Source: Thermoplasmata archaeon (GTDB lineage Archaea; Thermoplasmatota; Thermoplasmata; RBG-16-68-12). Taken from it: a stretch of 43,898 bases of DNA. The position numbers and the translations under genes are program-made. The notes under the pieces were generated by a model. It saw only the letters and a program-made list of their open reading frames with translations, was not told where the DNA came from and made no database searches. The stretch's first letter is position 1, and every line of letters starts with the position of its first letter. This document shows positions 12,953 through 30,768 of the stretch, one piece after another. The DNA lies in contig DATGWB010000023.1 of assembly GCA_035299725.1 (NCBI GenBank), positions 1 to 43,898 of the forward strand, given 5' to 3'.

Positions 12953-14281
12953 ATGGCGGGACAGTCTTCTCCGACGCTCGGTGCGGACGTGAAGAGTTCC
13001 GAGGTGTCGGGCTTCTACAAGAAGACCCCGCAGGACCGCTGGCAAGTCATCCGCTCGTTCGGCGAGCTCTCGGACGCAGAGGTCGAGACGATCCAGAACA
13101 CGGGTGCGCTCAAGTTCGACCAGGTCGACCGGATGATCGAAAACGTCGTCGGAGCCATGCCAGTGCCCCTCGGGATCGCGGTGAATTTCCAAGTGAATGG
13201 CCGGGATTATCTCGTGCCGATGGCAATCGAGGAGCCGAGCGTCGTCGCCGCGGCCTCGAACGCGGCCCGGATGGCCCGTGAACGAGGCGGCTTCTCGGCG
13301 AGCACGTCCGGTCCCATCATGATTGGCCAGATCCAACTCGTCGGAGTCTCGGATCCGCACGGCGCGCGGATGACGATCCTTCATCACAAGGATGAAATCC
13401 TCTCGATCGCGAACGAGAAGGATCCGATGCTGGTGAAGGTCGGCGGCGGAGCGAAGGACGTCGAGGTCCGCGTCGTGGACACGAAACGGGGCCACATGGT
13501 CGTCACACACCTCGTCGTCGACTGCCGCGACGCGATGGGGGCCAACGCCGTGAACACGATGGCGGAGGCAATCGCCCCGCACATCGAGAAGTGGACGGGC
13601 GGTCGCGTCTACCTCCGGATCATTTCGAATCTCGCGGTTCGTCGCCTCGCGCGCGCCCGGGCGGTGTTCGCGAAGGACGCCATCCGTACCGAGGACATCC
13701 CCGGCGAAGACGTCGTCGAAGGAATCCTCGAGGCCTACGCGTTCGCGGATGCGGATCCGTTCCGCTGTGCGACGCACAACAAGGGCATCATGAACGGGAT
13801 TGACGCGGTCGTCCTTGCGACCGGCAACGACTGGCGAGCAATCGAGGCCGGCGCCCATGCGTACGCGGCATGGAAGTCCGGCGGCTACCGGTCCCTCACC
13901 GCGTGGGAGAAAGACGTCAATGGAGACCTCGTCGGGACGATCGAGCTGCCCATGGCCGTCGGCCTGGTCGGCGGCGCAACGGCCGTCCATCCCACCGCAA
14001 AGGCGAATGTCCACCTTCTCGGGGTCAAGTCGGCACAAGAACTCGCGGAGGTCATCGCCTCGGTCGGCTTGGCGCAAAACTTCGCCGCCCTGCGTGCGTT
14101 GGCGACGGAGGGCATTCAACGCGGGCACATGTCGCTCCACGCGCGGAACGTCGCGGCGACGGTCGGAGCCGTCGGCGAGGAGGTCGACCGCGTGGCCGAA
14201 ATCCTCGTGAAGGAACGGAAAGTGCGGATGGACCGAGCGAAAGAGGTCCTGTCGGAGCTCCGGTCGCGAGAACCCAAGTGA
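12953..14281 (+). CDS. hmgA: Class II hydroxymethylglutaryl-CoA reductase
   Basis: I trimmed the track ORF (12761..14281) to ATG 12953. MIENVVGAMPVPLGIAVNFQVNGRDYLVPMAIEEPSVVAAASNAARM and DAMGANAVNTMAEA closely resemble class II (Pseudomonas mevalonii-type) HMGR. About 442 aa. Confidence 0.9.
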   Translation: MAGQSSPTLGADVKSSEVSGFYKKTPQDRWQVIRSFGELSDAEVETIQNTGALKFDQVDRMIENVVGAMPVPLGIAVNFQVNGRDYLVPMAIEEPSVVAAASNAARMARERGGFSASTSGPIMIGQIQLVGVSDPHGARMTILHHKDEILSIANEKDPMLVKVGGGAKDVEVRVVDTKRGHMVVTHLVVDCRDAMGANAVNTMAEAIAPHIEKWTGGRVYLRIISNLAVRRLARARAVFAKDAIRTEDIPGEDVVEGILEAYAFADADPFRCATHNKGIMNGIDAVVLATGNDWRAIEAGAHAYAAWKSGGYRSLTAWEKDVNGDLVGTIELPMAVGLVGGATAVHPTAKANVHLLGVKSAQELAEVIASVGLAQNFAALRALATEGIQRGHMSLHARNVAATVGAVGEEVDRVAEILVKERKVRMDRAKEVLSELRSREPK

Positions 14282-14584
14282 GGAATATTTTCGGACCGGA
14301 ATATTCGCACCTGAGGTAAGAAGCTGTGACGTATAATATACGTGCCGAAGACGGTACTACCAATATTTTTCCACGGAGCACAGAATTCCCGACGTTCAAT
14401 GCTACGAATTAGCATGGAAGCCCCGATCGAGCTCTATAAATATCTATCAAAACAGATAAAAGTTGAGCCTCGCCGACCAGGTTCTTGCCCTCTTTGAGAG
14501 ATGTTTATCGTACATCAGTGCGTCAGACTTTCGTCCGACCGGCAGTCTTTCATAGTTTGACGTTCCTTCGCCGCGTCGGGATGG

Positions 14585-15505
14585 GTGCGCACGGTTCGCG
14601 TCGCGATCTACACTAGAGTGTCGACGGAGGACCAAGCCAAGGAAGGCTTTTCCCTGGAGGCGCAGCGCGAACGCCTCGAGGCATATTGCCTGGCCCGCGA
14701 CTGGTCCGTTGCGGCCCGATACGTCGACGAGGGCCATTCCGGCCGAAACATCCGTCGTCCGGCGTACCAGAAGATGATGGCGGAGCGGGACCGATGGGAC
14801 GCCCTCCTGGTCATCAAGATGGACCGGATCCACAGGAACTCCCGGAACTTCATGGAAATGATGGAGAACCTCCAGGAATGGGGGAAGGACTTCGTCTCGG
14901 CGTCGGAGTCGTTGGACACCTCGACCGCGATGGGCCGATTCGTCATGGACATCATTCAACGGATCGCGCAGCTCGAGTCGGAGCAGATCGGCGAGCGGGT
15001 GAAGATGGGGATGACCCAGAAGGCGCGGGTCGGACCCGGGATCCTGGGATTCCATCCACCGCTCGGTTACGATGTCACGGAGGGCCGGCTCGTCCCGATC
15101 GAGGACGAGGCAGAGGTCGTGCGCGAGATGTTCGACCTGTGCCTGAACGGCCGGACTCTCGAGGAGACCGCTCGCGAACTGAATGCCAACGGCCGGCGGA
15201 CGAAACTCGGCACCTCGTGGACGCCGATCAAGGTCTACCGCATCCTCCACAATCCGGTCTACGCCGGTTTCCTCCGATGGGATGGAATCGTCCGGAAGGC
15301 CGACCACGATCCCCTCGTGGCGGTCAAAGGGTTCAACCTAGCCCAAGAGCGCTTGAGGTCGAGGGCGCTGCTCTCAAACGCGCACGCCCCGCCCTTGATT
15401 CTTCCGATATTCCAAGTGAAAAAGACTAACGACAGCGACGTTCCGGGAGGACCGGGAGCACATCTAGTCTCCGCACGCCGGCCGCAGGTCCCTGAGGAGG
15501 CCTAA
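14585..15505 (+). CDS. Serine recombinase (resolvase catalytic domain + recombinase domain; lacks a C-terminal zinc-ribbon/coiled-coil domain)
   Basis: VAIYTRVSTEDQ (catalytic Ser motif), GHSGRNIRRPAYQKMM, LLVIKMDRIHRNSRNF and AQLESEQIGERVKMGM define the resolvase domain. PLGYDV...ARELNANGRRTKLGTSWTPIKVYRILHNPVYAGFLRWDG defines the recombinase domain. GTG start. Confidence 0.85.
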   Translation: MRTVRVAIYTRVSTEDQAKEGFSLEAQRERLEAYCLARDWSVAARYVDEGHSGRNIRRPAYQKMMAERDRWDALLVIKMDRIHRNSRNFMEMMENLQEWGKDFVSASESLDTSTAMGRFVMDIIQRIAQLESEQIGERVKMGMTQKARVGPGILGFHPPLGYDVTEGRLVPIEDEAEVVREMFDLCLNGRTLEETARELNANGRRTKLGTSWTPIKVYRILHNPVYAGFLRWDGIVRKADHDPLVAVKGFNLAQERLRSRALLSNAHAPPLILPIFQVKKTNDSDVPGGPGAHLVSARRPQVPEEA

Positions 15506-16236
15506 TGCAGGAAGGCCGGTGTCAGCGGTGTTGGAGCACGAAGAACCTAGTGAGCCATGAGGTCGACGCGAACCCCCGCGCCGATCCGACAATCCGGCGG
15601 GAGAAGGTCCTCCTCTGCAAGCATTGCGTGGACGGATCTCCGGGCGACGCCCTCCTGTTCTGGGAGGTCTACATGCGATTCGGATCGACCCGCGAAATGC
15701 TCCAGCACTACGCCTCGGAATCCGAGGACGAGGCGCTCCGGAAACTGTGCGTGGAACGCGATCTGAACGAGCGCGAGGTGATGCGGCGGGCCCGAGGGCT
15801 GCAAAGCGTCGAGGCCCTGAACAACGCCGTCAAGAAAGCGAACGCATTCCTCACCTACGCTAGCCCGTACGGATACGACTACGTGGACGGTGTCCTCCAG
15901 CTGAAGAACGAGGAGGCTCGTGTGGTCTCCCTCATCTTCAGGCGCTATCTCGAAGGGAAGGGAATCGCCAAGATCTGCCAGGAGCTCAACCGGGACGGGT
16001 ATCGAACGAAGACCGGTCGAGCGTGGGCGAGCCAGACGATCGCGAACATCCTGAGCAACCCGGTGTACTGCGGCCTCGCCCGTCTGAACGGCGGTATCAA
16101 ACGCGGAAAGCACGAACCGCTCATCGAGATCGAAACGTTTAATCGGGTGCAGAACGAGATGCAACGCCGGATCCGAAGACCCGACCAACGAAAGGCCGAT
16201 CCGCCGCAGCTCCGACTCGAGGACTACCGCGAGTAG
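15505..16236 (+). CDS. Recombinase-domain protein without a resolvase catalytic domain; N-terminal Cys4 zinc-ribbon-like segment
   Basis: PYGYDYVDGVLQLKNEEARVVSLIFRRYLEGKGIAKICQELNRDGYRTKTGRAWASQTIANILSNPVYCGLARLNG...HEPLIEIETFNRVQ parallels the recombinase domain of the upstream gene. The N-terminus has CQRC...x31...CKHC. No YxRVSxxxQ motif. The start overlaps the upstream stop (TAATG). Confidence 0.7.
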   Translation: MQEGRCQRCWSTKNLVSHEVDANPRADPTIRREKVLLCKHCVDGSPGDALLFWEVYMRFGSTREMLQHYASESEDEALRKLCVERDLNEREVMRRARGLQSVEALNNAVKKANAFLTYASPYGYDYVDGVLQLKNEEARVVSLIFRRYLEGKGIAKICQELNRDGYRTKTGRAWASQTIANILSNPVYCGLARLNGGIKRGKHEPLIEIETFNRVQNEMQRRIRRPDQRKADPPQLRLEDYRE

Positions 16237-23705: not shown

Positions 23706-24869
23706 ATGCGCCTCACGCGGGCCCAGCGGAATCTGCTGGAGGAGGGGACAGAGTCCCAGCGCAAGGCGATGCAGATCCTGCTTGCGGTGGGCCGCCTCGC
23801 CGAAGCACCGCGCCTCGTCCCGATCACCTCGGCGCACGTGTCCGGCGTCTCGTACAAGATGATCGGGGACCCGGGCCTCGAGTTCCTCGAGGATTTCGCG
23901 CGGGACGCGCGGGTCGCGGTGCCGACGACCGTCAACCCGCTCGGGACGGATCTCGCGCAGTGGCAGGCGCTCGGCGTCCCGCCGTCGTTCGCGGAGAAGC
24001 AAGGACGCATCGCGAGCGCCTACGAGGCGATGGGAGTCCATCGCTCGTTCACCTGCACTCCGTATCTCATTGGCGTCCGACCGACCTTCGGTGAACACGT
24101 CGCCTGGGCGGAATCGAGTGCCGTGTGTTTCGCGAACTCGGTCCTTGGTGCCCGCACGAACCGGGAGGGCGGTCCCGCGGCCCTCGCCGCCGCCGTCGTC
24201 GGAGCGACACCGGACTACGGACTTCACAGAGACGAAGGTCGAGAACCCACGGTGATCGTGAAGGTCGGCGTGGAACCGCGAGGCATCGACTACTCCCTGA
24301 TCGGACTCGTCGCCGGAGAGCGAGTGGGCGACGGCCTTCCGTTCTTCCGCGGCTTCCGCGGGACCGAGGGAGACCTCAAGTGGCTCGGCGCGGCGCTCGC
24401 TTCCTCGGGCGCATGCTCAATGTTCCATCTGGAGGGCGTAACGCCCGAGTTCCGACGCGCGCGTGTGAAGGGCCTGAAGTCGATCGCGATTACCAAGGAA
24501 GATCTGGTTGCCGCGAAACGGGCGCACACCGACGGGACCGAAGCCGAGATGATCGGCCTCGGGTCCCCGCAACTCTCCTCGGACGAACTGCGAGAAGTCG
24601 CGCGGCTCGTCGACCGCACGCCGCCTCGGATCCCGGTTTGGGTGTTCACGAGTCGGATCGCGCGCGATGCGAATCCGGATGCCGTCGCGACAATCGAACG
24701 CCGCGGCGGTCGCGTCCTCGCGGATACGTGCCTCGAGGTCACGTTGCTCGAGCACCGATTCGGCACCGTCGCTACGCCGTCGGGGAAGGGGGCGTACTAC
24801 TTGCCGAGCCTCTCGCGGCAGAAGGTCGTCTTCGAGGAACTACAAACGCTGTTGGAGCGCTACGGATGA
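23706..24869 (+). CDS. Aconitase X (AcnX) large/catalytic subunit, DUF521; archaeal phosphomevalonate-dehydratase type
   Basis: ITSAHVSGVSYK, FTCTPYL and WAESSAVCFANSVLGARTNREGG are DUF521/AcnX signatures. About 387 aa. Confidence 0.8.
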   Translation: MRLTRAQRNLLEEGTESQRKAMQILLAVGRLAEAPRLVPITSAHVSGVSYKMIGDPGLEFLEDFARDARVAVPTTVNPLGTDLAQWQALGVPPSFAEKQGRIASAYEAMGVHRSFTCTPYLIGVRPTFGEHVAWAESSAVCFANSVLGARTNREGGPAALAAAVVGATPDYGLHRDEGREPTVIVKVGVEPRGIDYSLIGLVAGERVGDGLPFFRGFRGTEGDLKWLGAALASSGACSMFHLEGVTPEFRRARVKGLKSIAITKEDLVAAKRAHTDGTEAEMIGLGSPQLSSDELREVARLVDRTPPRIPVWVFTSRIARDANPDAVATIERRGGRVLADTCLEVTLLEHRFGTVATPSGKGAYYLPSLSRQKVVFEELQTLLERYG

Positions 24870-25657
24870 GGATTCGTGCCCGCGGGATCGTTGCCGGTCG
24901 GGCGTCGGGGCACGCACTCGTCTCCCCGGCTCCGTTCTCCTTTGTCGGCGGGGCGGATCCGGCCACCGGATCGATTCTCAATGGCGCGACCGGCGGCACG
25001 GGCGAACGACTGGCCGGCCGAATCTTCGCATTCCCGACCGGCAAAGGGAGCACGGTGGGCTCGTACGTGCTGTATGGCCTCGGGAAACGGGGCCATGGCC
25101 CCGCGGCGATCGTGAACCGACGCGCGGATGCCGTCGTCGCGGTCGGGGCGACGCTCGCGGGAATCCCGATGGTGGACCGCGTCGACGTCGGGGGCCTCCA
25201 AACGGGCGATCGGATGGTCGTCGACGCGGGTCGGGGAACGGTCGAGCTGCCCGACATCCAGGGAAAGCGCGTGGTGACGGCGATCCTCCGGAACCGGGGC
25301 CGCATCCTCATCGTCCGTCGGAGTGAGAAGGTGGGCACCTTCCAAGGGAAGTGGTCCGCGATCTCGGGCCACATCGAGGGCCGCGAGGATCCGAAGCACC
25401 GGGCCATCGTGGAGGTTCGGGAAGAGACAGGACTCCGGGCAATCACGCTTCGCGGAACGGCGGATCCGGTCCTCGCTCGAGACGGCACGACGATCTACAT
25501 CGTCCATCCCTTCCTCTTCGACACTCCGAATCGTCGGGTGCGCCTCGATTGGGAAAACGTCGAGCACCGATGGATTCGACCGGAGGAGTTGGACCGCTTC
25601 GAGACCGTCCCGCGGCTCGTCGACGTCGTCGCCGCGGTCTTCCAGCCCTCGGCCTAG
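24866..25657 (+). CDS. AcnX small (swivel, DUF126) subunit fused to a C-terminal Nudix hydrolase domain
   Basis: I trimmed the track ORF 24125..25657 to ATG 24866 (ATGA overlap). The N-terminal roughly 130 aa contain GRIFAFPTGKGSTVGSYVLY (DUF126 signature). The C-terminal roughly 130 aa contain the Nudix box GHIEGREDPKHRAIVEVREETGL, which is GX5EX7REUXEEXGU with V in place of R. Confidence 0.75.
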   Translation: MRIRARGIVAGRASGHALVSPAPFSFVGGADPATGSILNGATGGTGERLAGRIFAFPTGKGSTVGSYVLYGLGKRGHGPAAIVNRRADAVVAVGATLAGIPMVDRVDVGGLQTGDRMVVDAGRGTVELPDIQGKRVVTAILRNRGRILIVRRSEKVGTFQGKWSAISGHIEGREDPKHRAIVEVREETGLRAITLRGTADPVLARDGTTIYIVHPFLFDTPNRRVRLDWENVEHRWIRPEELDRFETVPRLVDVVAAVFQPSA

Positions 25658-25667
25658 GAACGCCCAC

Positions 25668-28600
25668 TCATCCAGAGGCGGAACCCGTTTGGCCGCCCGG
25701 TACGTTGACGACTTGATCCACTTCGCGTTCGAGGAGCGTCATCTGGTGAGCATCGAGGGTCGACGGGTTGACGGAGAGCAGCAGCACCCCGTTATTGACG
25801 GCCACCTGATCGCGGATCGACTGCACGAGACGCAACACAGTCAGGAAATTATTGTTGGTTACCAAGTATTCGATCGCGTCCAGGAGGACCACTCCTTTCT
25901 CGCGGGAGAGGAACTGTTCCGCAGCCAGCGATAACTTTTCGATGTCTTTCGGTCGGATCGAGTCCTCCTTGCCAACGTTGCTCAACCAGAGGATCGGCAG
26001 ATCCGTGAGCCCGAAGCGTTCTCGGACCTTCTGCGGGAATAGTCGCGTGATGATCATGCCCTTCTTCCCCGCGTTCTGCGCGATGAGGAACAGGCGATAC
26101 GCCTCGTCGGGCGTCGCCTCCCGAACCAGGTACGAGGAGGAGTCCTTGAGCAACGCGGGAGCCTCGTCTTCACCGGTTCGGGCCGGGGCCGGCGGGGCCG
26201 GTCGCGTCTGCGGCGCACCGCACGAAGGACACTCGGAAGAACCCGCGAGAATCAACTCTCCGCACGCGACGCACGCCGTGCGGGAAGGCGTCCCTAGGGC
26301 GGCCTGGCCGGTCAACGCGAAGCCGCAAACCGGACAGGCGTCCGAGCCGGGAGGGATCGCCGACTTGCATCGAGGGCAGGGCGTGGCCTCCAACGCCATC
26401 GGCTCTCCACATCGAGGACAGCGCCGCGCCCCGTCCGGGACGGAGGCCTGGCAGGTCGGGCAGACGGCCTCCGTCTTCTTCGGGGCGGCGAGGAATTCGG
26501 TGATCCGCTCGACGTCCCCCGCGTCAAGGCCCTCGACGGCGAGCAACTCTTGTTTCGTCGCGGAGCGAAGCGTCGCGAGGCTCTTGTAGCCTGCGTCGAA
26601 AAGGGCCATCGCTTTCGCAATCGTGAGGCCGGGGATCCGGGTGAATTCGCGAACCGCTTCGGAGAGATGGAGCGGCGTAACGCCGATGGTTACGGCATGA
26701 CCGTCGACGTCCTTCCATTCGACGACGTGTTCGGATGCGACGGTCTTGTCGGTGAACGTCAAGCTGCGAGAACGGGTCTCGCGGGCGATGAAGGCTTTCT
26801 GTGCCTCGAGAGTCGCGGCGAATTCCTTGTTCGTCTTGATGACCGCGGCGATGAAATCGTCGACATCGAGGTCGAGGTCTTTCCGCATCTGCTGGATCCG
26901 ACGCACGATCTCCCGAGCGTACGCTTCGGCCTGGAGCTCCGCGGTCACCCGGAGGTCGAGGTAGATTTCGCCGTGAGGCGTCTCGACCCGGACCACCTCG
27001 GGAGGGAGCGCCTTCTCAAAGTGCACCATCGTCGGGTCGATCGCGAACGTTTGCCCGTCGACCTGGAGCGTGTACGACCCGCGCTCGAACGCCTTTTGCA
27101 TCTCGCCCGGAGCGCGTGTGGCGAGCAGTTTCACAATCTTGGGTGCGAGAGCTTTGTACCCCTTGCCAATCGCTGCGAGGTCGGGTTTCGCGACCACGGC
27201 CGTCCCCGGAAACTCGTCTGCGGGTCCCAAGATCACGATTTCCTTCGCGTTCACCTGGTCCAGGAAGATCGTCCGGAGGGAAGAGAGCGCTTCCGCGGCC
27301 TCCGCTGTCGCGCTGCGGACCGCGATCTGTTTCAGGGGCCAACGGAGCTTCCGGCCTCCTTTCTGCCGTTCTTTTGAGACGACTTCGACCGCTTCTTGCA
27401 CGATCGACATGGACCGCTCAAGCTCGGGCCGAAGCCACTTCGCTCGGACGTCGGGCCAATCCAACATGTGGACGCTGAGCTTCCGTCCATCGAGGCGCTG
27501 GTACATCGCTTCGGCGATGTGGGGCGCGACGGGAGCGAGGAGGATCGCAAGGGTGCTCAGCGCTTCGAAGAGCACGTGGAACGCCGCCCGCTTGTCCTCG
27601 TCGTCGGTCTCGGTCCAGGTGCGCCCGCGGACCAGCTTCACGTACCACCGCGAGAGGTCGTCGAGGATGAACGCCTCGACCGCGCGAGCCGCACGGTGGA
27701 GGTTGTAGGAACTCATTTCGAGGTCCACGGTTTTCTTCAGACCCTCGAGCCTCGATAGGAGCCAACGATCCTCGGGCCGGAGGTGGCCTTCGATCGAAGA
27801 GAGCTCCGCCGCGAACGGATCGAACCGATCCAGGACCATGTAGGTCGTCGCGAACCGCAGGACGTTCCACAGGATGTTGAGGGTGCGCTGCGCGTTCCGG
27901 ACGCCGTCCTCCTGGAACGTGATGTCGTCCCACGGCGCGTTCACGGCGATCACATAGAATCGGAGCGGATCGACGCCGAACTTGTTGACGACCGTCTCGG
28001 GCTCGATGTAATTCCCCAGCGACTTGTGCATTTGCCGACCGTCCGGACCGTTCACCCAACCGTGCATCAAGACTTGGTCGTACGGAGCCCGGTCGAACGC
28101 GACGACGCCCGCCGCGAGTTGGGAATTGAACCAACCTCGCGTCTGGTCCGGCCCCTCGACGATCCAGTCCTGAGGCCACCAGCGACGGAACTCGTCGTCC
28201 CGCGCCGGATAACCGAGGCTCGCCCAACTCGAGACCCCGCTGTCGAACCACACGTCGACCGTGTCGGGGACCCGTCGCATCTCGCCGTCGCACTTCTCGC
28301 ACGGCAGTACGACCCGATCGATGCCGGGCCGGTGAAGGTCCATGCCTTCCTGGTAGCCCTTCGCGTTTCGAAGCGACTCGGCCGATCTGACGACCGTCCA
28401 GTGATGGCACTTCGCGCACCGCCAGATCGGGAGGGGGATGCCCCAGTATCGCTGCCGCGAAATACACCAGTCCCGCAGGTTGGACGTCCAGTCGAGCTGA
28501 CGCGCCGATCCGGCCCAATCCGGGAACCAGGTGACCCGCCCGACCTCCTCGACCATCTTCGGCTTGAAGTCCGCCACTTTGAGGAACCATTGGACCGTCG

Positions 28601-29831
28601 CGCGGAACAAGATCGGGGTCTTGCATCGCCAACAATGGCCGTACGCATGGAGGATCGTCTCCTCCGCGAACAGGGCGTGAGCCGCCCGAAGGTCCGCGAT
28701 GATCCCGGGATTCGCTTCCCTCACTTTCTGGCCCGCATAGACGCCGGCTTCCGAGGTGAAGTGGCCTCCGGCGTCCACGGGGGAAAAAGCGGGAAGGCCC
28801 AGGCGCTGACCGAGTTCGAAGTCTTCCGGGCCGTGCCCCGGTGCCGAGTGGACGAGCCCGGTGTACTCGGCGGCGACCGTGTCGGAGGAGACCACCTTGT
28901 GGACCCACTCGCCCTTCACGGATTTCTGATAGGGAAGCTTCGCGCGAAGCGGGTGGAGGTATGCGAGGCCGACGAGGTCGCTCCCTTTCTTCGTCTCCAC
29001 GACGGAATATTTCGTCACCCCGGTGCGGGCCATGACGTCGGGGACGCCGCTCTCCATGAGCCAGACGTACTCGACCTTCTTGCCATAGGGAATCTTTACC
29101 TTCGCGTACCGGAAGTCGGGATGCGCCGCGATCGCGAGATTGGCGGGAAGGGTCCACGGGGTCGTGGTCCAGATCAGGAGGGATTCGTTCGGTTTGCCGG
29201 CGATGCGGAACTTGACGTAGATCGATGGGTCCGTTTCGTCGGAGTACTCGACTTCGGCGTCCGCGAGGGCCGTCTCGCATCGGGAACACCACTGGATCGA
29301 ACGGAGCGCCTCATAGATCCAGTCGCGTTCGTGGGCGCGTTTCAGCGTCCACCAGGCCGCCTCGATGAATTCGTTGCGGATCGTCATGTACGGGCGGTCC
29401 CAATCCAGCCAGATGCCGAGCGACTGGAACTGTTTCGTCATCTTCTGGAGGAGATCCGTCGCGAAGGTCCGGCACGTGTTCACGAACTTCTCGATGCCGA
29501 GCTCTTCGATCTCCTTCTTGTTCGTGATCCCGAGGGTCTTCTCGACCTGCACCTCGATCGGGAGGCCGTGCATGTCGTAGCCTGGCTGGTCCCGGACGTG
29601 GTAGCCGCGCATGCGGTGATAGCGGACGACGAGATCTTTGATCGTCTTGTTCAGGACCTGTCCGAGGTGAATCGATCCGGTCGTGTACGGCGGGCCGTCG
29701 CCAAAAAAGAAATCCTCGCCTTTCTCCCGGGCCACGACGGTCTTCCGATAGACCCTCGCCCGGTCCCAGAATTCCTGGACCTGTCTCTCCACCTCGAGTG
29801 GAGCATACGTCTTCTCCGCCTGCTTGATCAT
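25668..29831 (-). CDS. ileS: Isoleucyl-tRNA synthetase with appended C-terminal HhH, 3x zinc-ribbon and DUF835-like module
   Basis: The archaeal/eukaryal-type IleRS core is full length (GPPYTTGSIHLGQ as HIGH-type motif, KMHKSLGN as KMSKS). I chose the start at ATG 29831 (MIKQAEKTYAPLEVERQVQEFW); the track ORF extends to 29921. The last roughly 333 aa are non-IleRS (see finding). Confidence 0.9.
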   Translation of the reverse strand: MIKQAEKTYAPLEVERQVQEFWDRARVYRKTVVAREKGEDFFFGDGPPYTTGSIHLGQVLNKTIKDLVVRYHRMRGYHVRDQPGYDMHGLPIEVQVEKTLGITNKKEIEELGIEKFVNTCRTFATDLLQKMTKQFQSLGIWLDWDRPYMTIRNEFIEAAWWTLKRAHERDWIYEALRSIQWCSRCETALADAEVEYSDETDPSIYVKFRIAGKPNESLLIWTTTPWTLPANLAIAAHPDFRYAKVKIPYGKKVEYVWLMESGVPDVMARTGVTKYSVVETKKGSDLVGLAYLHPLRAKLPYQKSVKGEWVHKVVSSDTVAAEYTGLVHSAPGHGPEDFELGQRLGLPAFSPVDAGGHFTSEAGVYAGQKVREANPGIIADLRAAHALFAEETILHAYGHCWRCKTPILFRATVQWFLKVADFKPKMVEEVGRVTWFPDWAGSARQLDWTSNLRDWCISRQRYWGIPLPIWRCAKCHHWTVVRSAESLRNAKGYQEGMDLHRPGIDRVVLPCEKCDGEMRRVPDTVDVWFDSGVSSWASLGYPARDDEFRRWWPQDWIVEGPDQTRGWFNSQLAAGVVAFDRAPYDQVLMHGWVNGPDGRQMHKSLGNYIEPETVVNKFGVDPLRFYVIAVNAPWDDITFQEDGVRNAQRTLNILWNVLRFATTYMVLDRFDPFAAELSSIEGHLRPEDRWLLSRLEGLKKTVDLEMSSYNLHRAARAVEAFILDDLSRWYVKLVRGRTWTETDDEDKRAAFHVLFEALSTLAILLAPVAPHIAEAMYQRLDGRKLSVHMLDWPDVRAKWLRPELERSMSIVQEAVEVVSKERQKGGRKLRWPLKQIAVRSATAEAAEALSSLRTIFLDQVNAKEIVILGPADEFPGTAVVAKPDLAAIGKGYKALAPKIVKLLATRAPGEMQKAFERGSYTLQVDGQTFAIDPTMVHFEKALPPEVVRVETPHGEIYLDLRVTAELQAEAYAREIVRRIQQMRKDLDLDVDDFIAAVIKTNKEFAATLEAQKAFIARETRSRSLTFTDKTVASEHVVEWKDVDGHAVTIGVTPLHLSEAVREFTRIPGLTIAKAMALFDAGYKSLATLRSATKQELLAVEGLDAGDVERITEFLAAPKKTEAVCPTCQASVPDGARRCPRCGEPMALEATPCPRCKSAIPPGSDACPVCGFALTGQAALGTPSRTACVACGELILAGSSECPSCGAPQTRPAPPAPARTGEDEAPALLKDSSSYLVREATPDEAYRLFLIAQNAGKKGMIITRLFPQKVRERFGLTDLPILWLSNVGKEDSIRPKDIEKLSLAAEQFLSREKGVVLLDAIEYLVTNNNFLTVLRLVQSIRDQVAVNNGVLLLSVNPSTLDAHQMTLLEREVDQVVNVPGGQTGSASG

Positions 29832-29966
29832 CGCAGCCCCGCTCCTGGGGATTCGGGCCGCCCGAGGCTTCTTCATCGCCTCGAGAAGCGGTCGACTATC
29901 TGGGCGGCCATATAAAAGCATGCGGTCGTTGGTGCCCGTGCACCTACCCGGCGAATCCGAGCGGAT

Positions 29967-30596
29967 TCAGTACGCGGTCGCGGGCAGCTTCCGGACGAAC
30001 TCGTTGTTCGTGAGTTGTTGGACCATGAAGTCCGCGACATCCGCGCGGGAGATGCGAAAGCCCCACCGCGGGATTCCTTCGACCGCCACGCGGTAGCGAC
30101 CCTTCGCTGGGCCGTTCGTCAACAGGACGGCGCGCACCGCGATCCATTCGAGTTCGCGACGCCGAAGTTCGTCGAGCATCTTGCGATGCTCTCGATAGAC
30201 TTCCGGCAGCCACATTCGAAAGATTCGCATGCCCGCATTCCCGACCGCGAATCCGGCCGACTCCCCGAGGGCGCCAGCCGCCGAGAGGGCCACGATCCGG
30301 CGGACGCGGGACCGTTCCATCGCATCGAGGATGTGTCGCACGCCGTCGGAAAGGACCGGCGCCGGATTGCGAGCCGTGCTCCCCAGAGCCGAAAGGACCG
30401 CGTCGTGACCGGGAATCACCCGATCCACCGAGGGAGGGTCGAGGACGTCGCCTCGGACGACGCGCAACCGTTCGTGGACGATGGTCATGCGGGTCGGATC
30501 GCGCACGAAGGCGGTGACCGTGTGGCTCGCCCGCAGTGCCCGTTCCGTGAGGTGGCGCCCGGTCTCCCCCGTCGCGCCGAACACAACGACCTTCAC
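29967..30596 (-). CDS. NAD(P)H-binding Rossmann-fold oxidoreductase (atypical SDR / NmrA-like)
   Basis: N-terminal MKVVVFGATGETGRHL glycine motif. About 209 aa. GTG start. Confidence 0.75.
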   Translation of the reverse strand: MKVVVFGATGETGRHLTERALRASHTVTAFVRDPTRMTIVHERLRVVRGDVLDPPSVDRVIPGHDAVLSALGSTARNPAPVLSDGVRHILDAMERSRVRRIVALSAAGALGESAGFAVGNAGMRIFRMWLPEVYREHRKMLDELRRRELEWIAVRAVLLTNGPAKGRYRVAVEGIPRWGFRISRADVADFMVQQLTNNEFVRKLPATAY

Positions 30597-30693
30597 GAGG
30601 ACCCAGACCGAATAAACGGAGGTCGTCTCATGAAGATGCTGCGATTCCCGCGGCGAGAGTTCCAGACCGGGGGAAGGGCGAGCCGTACGCGAG

Positions 30694-30768
30694 GGCCGGG
30701 AGCGAGATTTGAACTCGCGTCAAGGGATCCACAGTCCCCTAGCATAACCAGGCTAGCCCATCCCGGCC
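30694..30768 (-). tRNA. tRNA-His (anticodon GUG) with genomically encoded G-1
   Basis: Hand-folded cloverleaf. Acceptor is GCCGGGA/TCCCGGC, with U8. The D-loop is AGCCTGGTTA. The anticodon stem is GGGGA/TCCCT with loop CTGTGGA. The T-arm is GCGAG-TTCAAAT-CTCGC. The discriminator is C, paired with an extra 5' G, which is a His identity feature. No encoded CCA. Confidence 0.9.

Follow-up and report, generated by a model that had tools for sequence, protein, structure and literature searches.

The gene analysed here lies on a 43,898-nt stretch of DNA (the window) from a Thermoplasmata archaeon (assembly GCA_035299725.1, contig DATGWB010000023.1, numbered along the forward strand), and it encodes an isoleucyl-tRNA synthetase (IleRS) that continues in the same frame into a large C-terminal tail ending in a DUF835 domain. 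An earlier note on this DNA, made from the sequence alone, had described a minus-strand open reading frame (ORF) uninterrupted for 1417 codons, with a complete archaeal-type IleRS from a methionine at 29831 onward, followed by roughly 333 residues that do not belong to this enzyme. This description was borne out. The ORF is a single frame of 1417 codons plus a stop, without interruption, and the range of the tail, 25668-26669, corresponds to exactly 333 amino acids and the stop codon. Since the alignments of the relatives begin at residues 17-31 of the window ORF, the true start of the gene is probably Met31 at 29831, which gives a coding sequence (CDS) at 25668-29831 with 1387 amino acids, and the first 30 codons of the ORF (29832-29921) are probably non-coding. 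The gene is the ileS of a Thermoplasmata archaeon related to Methanomassiliicoccales. Its features are collected in Table 1, where residues, as in the text below, are counted along the whole ORF unless they are given as tail positions.

Table 1. Features of the ileS ORF and of its C-terminal tail (window coordinates).
Feature	Residues	Position	Strand	Basis or remark
Whole ORF		25668..29921	-	ORF list; probable CDS 25668-29831
IleRS class I catalytic core with putative CP1 (connective peptide 1) editing insertion	48-663	27933..29780	-	PF00133 tRNA-synt_1, 421 bits
Anticodon-binding domain	718-864	27330..27770	-	PF08264 Anticodon_1, 120 bits
Archaeal/eukaryote-type IleRS C-terminal domains	885-1079	26685..27269	-	PF19302 DUF5915, 83 bits
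(HhH)2 (helix-hairpin-helix) unit	1091-1144	26490..26651	-	PF14520 HHH_5, directly behind the last IleRS domain
Three 4-Cys zinc ribbons	1154-1234	26220..26462	-	CPTC-x10-CPRC, CPRC-x10-CPVC, CVAC-x10-CPSC
Pro/Ala-rich disordered linker	1238-1261	26139..26210	-	Predicted local distance difference test (pLDDT) <50 at tail residues 158-169
DUF835 ('iKaiC')	1262-1402	25716..26138	-	PF05763, modelled RecA/KaiC fold without P-loop
Disordered, weakly conserved C-terminal end	1403-1417	25671..25715	-	pLDDT <50

The synthetase part carries the Pfam domains of an IleRS in order, and it matches the NCBIfam equivalog TIGR00392 (ileS) over residues 39-878 with 948.9 bits against a cutoff of 621.4. The HIGH-type motif reads IHLG (residues 84-87). 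The KMSKS equivalent is QMHKS (residues 630-634, window 28020-28034), in which the second lysine is retained and the first is lost; the pattern xM[SH]KS is present in 56 of the 58 full-length proteins that were aligned. Absence of the first lysine was observed throughout the clade, with QMHKS in the window protein and 21 others and PMSKS in 27 others. A string search of the window protein alone located TTPWTLP (residue 253) and APGHG (residue 360), which we take to be motifs of the CP1 editing domain. Farther downstream, Arg1013 in the motif RRIQQMRK (26883-26885) aligns with residue 999 of the yeast IleRS chain 8wnd_A, assuming native numbering of that chain, and the aligned arginine is conserved across the twelve commonest variants of the motif in the clade. 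Arg999 of the yeast C-ter C domain is the residue with which IleRS of the eukaryote/archaeal type reads the wobble base N34 (PMC11685878). The tail starts about 70 residues past this arginine, and the C-ter C domain runs into it uninterrupted. By these signatures the gene encodes a complete IleRS, the body of which looks fully functional.

For the tail, two HhH-like units, three regularly spaced zinc ribbons, a Pro/Ala linker and a DUF835-like region had been proposed in the earlier note, and each of these elements was recovered by profile searches or structure prediction at the place given there, with profile scores that all exceed the curated cutoffs and lie far above chance. The HHH_5 family passes its Pfam cutoff of 27 with either query, scoring 32.9 bits on the full protein and 35.8 on the tail by itself, and AlphaFold2 models the (HhH)2 unit as five helices with pLDDT of 93-98. 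When the profile of this unit was searched against the sequences of the PDB, the best match was the N-terminal extension of haloarchaeal eL32 (E 3.5e-7), with further matches to the AR repeats of NusA (about 1e-6), the N-terminal domain of RadA (1.2e-5) and domain 5 of Hel308. The ribbons are built from six CxxC pairs at tail positions 70, 84, 98, 112, 133 and 147, which form three copies of CxxC-x10-CxxC with the spacing quoted before. DZR (PF12773) covers residues 1154-1200 with 46.6 bits in the whole protein and up to 53.8 bits (cutoff 27.3), and Zn_Ribbon_1 (PF13240), also above its cutoff, matches three stretches, the zinc-ribbon matches extending to residue 1237. In the model of the tail, the predicted ribbons appear as beta-hairpins.

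The AlphaFold2 model of the whole tail has a mean pLDDT of 88.9, with predicted disorder at tail positions 122-126 and 158-169 and in the last seven residues. A Foldseek search with this model placed Rad51, RadA and Dmc1 on top (E about 4e-7, about 350 aligned columns), so that the tail, as modelled, would mirror the layout of RadA/Rad51, in which an N-terminal (HhH)2 precedes a RecA-fold core. Binding of nucleic acid is the classic function of HhH units and zinc ribbons, and it had been suggested for the fusion from the sequence. That suggestion is weakened by the composition of the tail, the modules of which are not basic: net charge averages -1.1 in the HhH part, -4.4 in the middle and -1.6 in DUF835.

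The assignment of the last domain is strong. PF05763 matches residues 1272-1400 over model positions 6-135 of 136, with 108.6-111.4 bits against a cutoff of 33.1 and E-values of 2.7e-31 in the whole protein and 3.7e-32 in the tail alone. An AlphaFold model of DUF835 by itself reached a pLDDT of 93.2 and a predicted template modelling score (pTM) of 0.88. With this model, Foldseek retrieved FlaH (4yds, E 1.7e-6, query template modelling score, TMq, 0.66), PH0284 (2dr3, TMq 0.72, root-mean-square deviation 3.2 Å), KaiC (TMq up to 0.71) and RecA, as well as chains of the RAD51-paralogue entries 9q25 and 9q23 (BCDX2/CX3) and of Shu1:Shu2 (6dex). The sequence evidence for kinship with RecA/KaiC is weak (NCBIfam ArlH at E 3e-4, FlaH at E 4e-3), and a phmmer search of DUF835 alone against PDB sequences gave no significant match; the fold is therefore revealed by structure comparison alone. 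In the model, strand 1 is followed by a turn of four to five residues and no P-loop, and the Walker A pattern GxxxxGK[ST] was found in the DUF835 region of none of the 58 full-length proteins. A single match to this pattern occurs within the last 340 residues of one protein (L078), the DUF835 stretch of which is likewise without a P-loop. Judged by its model, then, DUF835 is a RecA/KaiC-fold domain that has lost the P-loop, in agreement with the description of the family in the earlier note.

A Walker-B-like VVLLD is retained at tail positions 260-264, with Asp264 invariant or nearly so. The invariant elements of the domain sit in the loops that leave strands 2 (T/R), 3 (WLSNVG and RPKD.EKL), 4 (D..EYL.TNNNF) and 5 (N.S). 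Taken from the DSSP string of the model together with the invariant columns, all of these residues appear to lie at the C-terminal edge of the sheet, which in RecA-like folds is the nucleotide site and the subunit interface.

The reality of the fusion was examined at the level of DNA in two scans. In the tail-based scan, one genome per GTDB species was searched with an alignment of the tail, and the 80 best loci were read as DNA. The junction between IleRS and tail lies in one open frame in 79 of these 80 loci, and in the remaining one the contig starts inside the tail. Intact ORFs from the N-terminus of IleRS through DUF835 were found in 55 loci, and two more came from other look-ups, giving 57 ORFs of about 1353-1504 amino acids, one of them in the complete genome CP058896.1; the other 25 loci are cut by a contig end (16) or interrupted further upstream inside IleRS (9). 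The unbiased scan used IleRS residues 885-1084, without the tail, as the query against metagenome contigs. Downstream DNA was long enough for a reading at 74 loci; at 73 of them the frame runs on into DUF835, even where identity in the region of the query is as low as 36%, and no tail-less relative was present among the 80 best IleRS C-terminal matches in these contigs. The fusion is therefore not a peculiarity of the window genome: it is a clade-wide trait, old, vertically inherited, fixed in a large clade and kept by almost all of the relatives that were looked at. Over 1,596 pairs, divergence in the IleRS body correlates with divergence in DUF835 (r = 0.86), as expected for one vertically inherited gene.

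The genomes that carry the fusion are labelled Thermoplasmata, Methanomassiliicoccales, Methanomassiliicoccaceae or Methanomassiliicoccus sp., and public databases name the fused proteins 'isoleucine--tRNA ligase' or 'class I tRNA ligase family protein'. Nearest to the window, at 89% identity in the tail, are the metagenome-assembled genomes EA_10 and EA_11 (VBLZ01, VBMA01), presumably soil-derived. No named cultured isolate was found among the homologues of the tail. A search with the tail alone returned many Thermoplasmata proteins with DUF5915, HhH and DUF835, all of them fragments on short contigs, and for the IleRS-DUF835 family the protein search gave fragments of at most about 590 amino acids; conclusions on the full-length gene rest on the DNA loci.

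An artefact, in which a lost stop codon or a chimeric assembly would join what are separate IleRS and DUF835 proteins, had to be considered because public gene calls list 'DUF835 domain-containing proteins' of 186-242 amino acids in some genomes and because one locus (L164) has an in-frame TAG-ATG inside the second HhH unit. The DNA beneath the short gene calls is open for 1425-1439 codons, the remaining splits are scaffold gaps or frameshifts within IleRS in error-prone assemblies, the junction is continuous in nearly all of the independently assembled loci of both scans, and the tail is under purifying selection. With no stop or frameshift at the junction in relatives that would speak for two genes, the check proposed in the earlier note came out in favour of a single gene; the other refuting condition named there, a lack of significant DUF835/HhH matches in the tail, is contradicted by the strong profile matches. 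We assign the two-gene reading a negligible probability, it is effectively refuted for the clade, and the anatomy and reality of the fusion can be regarded as practically certain.

Several apparent exceptions were followed individually. Two candidates for a stand-alone DUF835 (P0104 and P0118) were rejected, as the underlying ORFs are open for 1439 and 1425 codons. Two others taken for separate DUF835 genes (P0074, P0111) are divided from IleRS only by runs of N in scaffolds, and two apparent split genes (P0036, P0038) lie on long contigs ridden with frameshifts, where FEN1 and Cpn60 are split as well. Eight apparent internal stops proved to be true gene ends or, in one case, a stop at codon 3. 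At two loci (L085, 2284-6558, from CP058896.1, and L083, 2410-6726) the DNA is open for 1425 or 1439 codons of IleRS plus tail, and the public gene calls hold just a 186-aa or 242-aa 'DUF835 domain-containing protein' with 3.6 kb upstream left without a gene. At L164, the one exception among the 74 loci of the unbiased scan, an in-frame TAG runs straight into ATG (1256-1261, context CAG-TAG-ATG) within the second HhH unit, and the frame is unchanged through DUF835. Methanomassiliicoccales can read TAG as pyrrolysine; this TAG could be a natural split, a pyrrolysine or read-through codon, or an error.

The ratio of nonsynonymous to synonymous substitution rates (dN/dS) was computed among close relatives, and variation was surveyed over the 58 full-length proteins. 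DUF835 gave dN/dS of 0.04-0.07 and the catalytic core about 0.09; the values were 0.07-0.37 for HhH, 0.12-0.24 for the zinc ribbons, 0.25-0.94 for the linker and 0.11-1.2 for the C-terminal end. DUF835 is thus as constrained as the catalytic core, the linker is the least constrained part of the gene, and the values for the tail indicate that it is translated and constrained. Identities point the same way, with a mean pairwise identity of 0.66 for DUF835 and 0.62 for the IleRS body, while identity to the window protein averages 0.65 in DUF835 and 0.64 in the catalytic core and drops to 0.47 in HhH, 0.34 in the zinc ribbons and 0.20 in the linker. One protein (L056, 6875-10933) has a catalytic core identity of 0.20 in the MAFFT alignment and aberrant HIGH and KMSKS columns next to a normal DUF835 (0.55); either an alignment error or divergence of its IleRS body may be the cause.

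All 58 full-length proteins have the first (HhH)2 unit and DUF835. Between these two, the number of zinc ribbons may be 0, 1, 2 or 3, and some proteins have one more HhH unit there. Whole tails range from about 280 to 1280 amino acids. Long tails occur in distant lineages, where extra HhH units and tetratricopeptide (TPR) repeats are added and DUF835 is still terminal; five IleRS-DUF835 proteins of 1644-2329 amino acids (P0122, P0123, P0127, P0128, P0131) have tails of 600-1280. On the evidence of these variants, the segment between HhH and DUF835 behaves as a spacer.

A census of DUF835 gave 2,815 representative clusters at E ≤ 0.001. The strongest classifiable matches were the IleRS fusions, and the next sampled carriers were proteins of 800-1036 amino acids with the domain at the extreme C-terminus and upstream regions without a Pfam match, so that DUF835 would typically be a C-terminal appendage. 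No fusion to another synthetase was seen among the sampled proteins of 800-2300 amino acids with a C-terminal DUF835, the long ones all being IleRS. The earlier note had called the family functionally uncharacterised, which stands in so far as, to our knowledge, DUF835 has no experimentally known function and its response-regulator versions likewise have not been studied by experiment. It does not stand entirely, because the domain is known as 'iKaiC', an inactivated KaiC-like domain, and 36 response regulators of archaea carry it as their output domain (PMC5847659). These regulators have the forms REC-DUF835 and REC-PAS-PAS-DUF835 and occur in Methanomicrobia and Thermoplasmata (Galperin et al. 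2018, PMC5847659).

At four loci (L088, 6001-6657, from CP070767.1, and also L089, L090 and L091), DUF835 was observed as a complete protein of its own, 218 amino acids long and about 50% identical to the domain borne by IleRS. These proteins lie in a same-strand cluster of genes for a CBS protein, GlyRS, (an AsnB-like protein), a 90-aa TPR protein, DUF835, an unannotated protein of 135-143 amino acids and a Ras/Roc-family small GTPase, with Elp3 on the opposite strand. The four loci share their gene order over 12 kb and represent one lineage and not independent evidence; therefore the cluster is only a lead, suggestive of a possible partner or signalling module.

Among the closest known systems is UNE-I, the C-terminal appendage of vertebrate IleRS, which docks IARS1 to EARS1 in the multi-synthetase complex and also binds BRCA1 (PMC9643514, PMC11685878). 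Both are non-catalytic modules at the C-terminal end of an IleRS of the eukaryote/archaeal type. UNE-I, however, is a tandem UBX, whereas the archaeal tail consists of HhH, zinc ribbons and a RecA/KaiC fold; no UBX family is among the Pfam matches of the whole window protein, the two are not homologous, and their origins in vertebrates and archaea are independent. The analogy would thus be positional and functional only. The REC-DUF835 response regulators share PF05763 as an apparent C-terminal effector end and, like the fusion, occur in Thermoplasmata and Methanomicrobia, but there the N-terminal partner is a receiver domain and here it is an essential synthetase; REC, PAS and HisKA had no Pfam match in the whole window protein.

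Likeness to RecA-fold proteins is likewise partial. RadA, Rad51 and Dmc1 have the same order of an N-terminal (HhH)2 and a RecA-fold core, whereas the tail lacks Walker A, its core of about 140 residues is much smaller, and the ribbons and the linker are inserted between the two domains. FlaH/ArlH and PH0284 are the best single-domain structural matches of DUF835 (TMq 0.66-0.72), and FlaH/ArlH and KaiC-like proteins work through oligomer and partner interfaces. These proteins, unlike DUF835, stand alone and bind ATP via a P-loop; DUF835 is appended and has no P-loop. Rad51 paralogues and Shu subunits, which act as structural binding modules, share the RecA-like fold and appear among the Foldseek matches of DUF835, but they are eukaryotic and serve DNA repair, and no sequence relationship was detected. 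Synthetases with an extra accessory domain are also found in the bacterial IleRS-GNAT (NF040702) and in Arc1p/EMAPII/Trbp111, where the domains and their positions are others; the tRNA-binding appendages are basic, whereas the tail is acidic. NF040702 matches the window protein only through the shared IleRS body (residues 289-828, 457.6 bits against a cutoff of 1999).

We tentatively propose as the most likely role, at slightly less than even confidence, that the tail is a tethered protein-docking module. Its working end would be DUF835, which a flexible spacer of differing length would join to the enzyme and which would bind a protein partner through the conserved face that matches the nucleotide and subunit-interface site of RecA, KaiC and FlaH. 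Candidate partners would be DUF835 itself, a protein of the KaiC/RadA family or another component of translation, and IleRS would in this way be recruited into a larger assembly or tied to the archaeal KaiC-type regulatory network, a role analogous to that of vertebrate UNE-I, which docks into the multi-synthetase complex from the same C-terminal position of IleRS. The (HhH)2 unit, beside the wobble-reading domain, may make a minor contact to tRNA or to the partner. Docking is favoured because the middle of the tail is disordered and variable, like a spacer, because the ATP site is absent, because DUF835 is an output domain in response regulators (PMC5847659), and because UNE-I provides a precedent on vertebrate IleRS (PMC9643514). 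Protein contacts are favoured over general RNA binding because the modules are neutral to acidic and the HhH unit resembles the AR repeats of NusA. Several points weigh against docking. The conserved face is polar (Arg, Lys, Asp, Glu and Asn), and a small ligand or a nucleic acid could be bound there just as well; the HhH units and zinc ribbons are classic binders of nucleic acid, and the tail adjoins the domain that reads the tRNA anticodon. Within the window there is no KaiC-like gene and no second DUF835 gene, and the neighbours, FEN1 in relatives and AcnX/NUDIX convergent with ileS, give no clue to a partner.

The location of the tail, close behind the N34-reading arginine of C-ter C, brings up a different function, that of a built-in tRNA-binding cofactor. 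In this case HhH, ribbons and the RecA-like domain, through loops equivalent to L1/L2 of RecA, would contact tRNA-Ile and raise affinity or help to discriminate the modified wobble base, in the manner of Arc1p, Trbp111 and EMAPII. HHH_5 and zinc-ribbon families typically bind nucleic acid, the layout resembles that of the DNA-binding recombinases RadA and Rad51, and the PDB matches of the HhH unit include the N-terminal domain of RadA and domain 5 of Hel308. We consider this function possible but doubtful: known general tRNA-binding appendages are basic, whereas each of the tail modules is neutral to acidic, the zinc ribbons are dispensable (0-3 copies in relatives), and the most conserved part lies beyond a disordered linker and, in certain lineages, over 1000 residues away from the IleRS body. 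In addition, tail-less archaeal and eukaryotic IleRS read tRNA-Ile by C-ter A/B/C alone (PMC11685878). If the conserved face held a small molecule instead, DUF835 would be a ligand sensor, its degenerate pocket binding a nucleotide, an alarmone or an amino-acid-related metabolite and modulating the activity or localisation of IleRS. The cluster of invariant R, K, D, E and NNN at the C-terminal sheet edge coincides with the ligand site of the fold, the Walker-B-like aspartate is kept, and the domain occurs in signal-transduction proteins such as REC-DUF835 (PMC5847659). The absence of the P-loop, which holds the phosphates, the flexible and variable linker, which makes allosteric control of a distant active site improbable, and the place of DUF835 as output and not input in response regulators render a sensor unlikely.

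A second function related to DNA, in which a RadA-like module would bind DNA or recombination/repair proteins and link IleRS to genome maintenance, draws on the rank of Rad51, RadA and Dmc1 as top Foldseek matches of the whole tail over about 350 columns, on the matches of the DUF835 model to chains of RAD51-paralogue complexes and Shu1:Shu2, on the position of FEN1 directly upstream of ileS in many relatives, and on the stabilisation of BRCA1 by UNE-I of vertebrate IARS1 (PMC9643514). Other points speak against it. The match to RadA itself (PRK04301) is weak, reaching 12.4 bits (E 0.065) where the cutoff is 259, and covers the HhH part only; a likeness in HhH and RecA fold is shared by the superfamily at large; in the window, ileS is preceded by an NAD-binding protein and tRNA-His and not by an adjacent FEN1; and the ATPase site is absent. 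We regard a role in genome maintenance as quite improbable.

The genes around ileS were also surveyed. Downstream, on the plus strand, lie the AcnX large subunit (23706-24869) and an AcnX swivel domain fused to NUDIX (24866-25657), convergent with ileS, the ends of the swivel-NUDIX and ileS ORFs being 10 nt apart. The same AcnX/AcnX-swivel-NUDIX pair follows ileS in the distant relatives L002, L083, L085 and L087. AcnX acts in the archaeal mevalonate pathway; if it does so here, the NUDIX part could be an enzyme similar to isopentenyl diphosphate (IPP) isomerase. Upstream of ileS are a gene for an NAD(P)H-binding protein (29967-30596) and, on the same strand as ileS, tRNA-His (30693-30767, minus), the only tRNA in the window; in many relatives FEN1 stands upstream of ileS instead. 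A scan for sigma-70 promoters and terminators around ileS was uninformative, archaeal promoter types being outside its models. At a distance from ileS, an apparently split large serine recombinase (14585-15505 with Resolvase and Recombinase, 15505-16236 with a second Recombinase, both on the plus strand) sits between HMG-CoA reductase and the large subunit of replication factor C (RFC), with a dip in GC to 0.586 at 14001-15000. It may be the remnant of an integrated element.

All component families of this protein were already known, and so were synthetases with appended domains. A literature search returned no description of an IleRS-DUF835 or synthetase-KaiC fusion, in agreement with the earlier statement that the architecture had not been described; the primary account of iKaiC, published in mBio by Makarova et al. 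in 2017, was outside this search. The combination, its fixation throughout an archaeal clade and the constraint on the terminal domain appear not to have been described.

Appended non-catalytic domains of synthetases are viewed mainly as a eukaryotic innovation linked to the building of complexes and to roles beyond translation. In the present case the synthetase is archaeal and essential, and its large appendage persists throughout a whole radiation. The appendage occupies the C-terminal position known from vertebrate IleRS, and its terminal domain evolves as slowly as the active site. The radiation includes genomes labelled Methanomassiliicoccales, the order of the human-gut methanogen Methanomassiliicoccus. 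Known carriers of DUF835 include an essential synthetase, response regulators and large uncharacterised proteins. A bolder and rather unlikely extension of the docking proposal is that IleRS-iKaiC physically links tRNA charging to KaiC-type signalling, or anchors an archaeal multi-synthetase or translation assembly, with DUF835 domains serving as adaptor plugs to a common hub. If this were true, archaeal signalling would have amino-acid or translation status as an input or an output, and no system known in these organisms plays such a part. The fusion makes DUF835 convenient to study by experiment, as the enzyme that bears it is simple to assay and acts on a defined RNA, and what the tail binds would bear on whether archaeal synthetase complexes are built through RecA/KaiC-like adaptors and whether a KaiC hub reaches translation.

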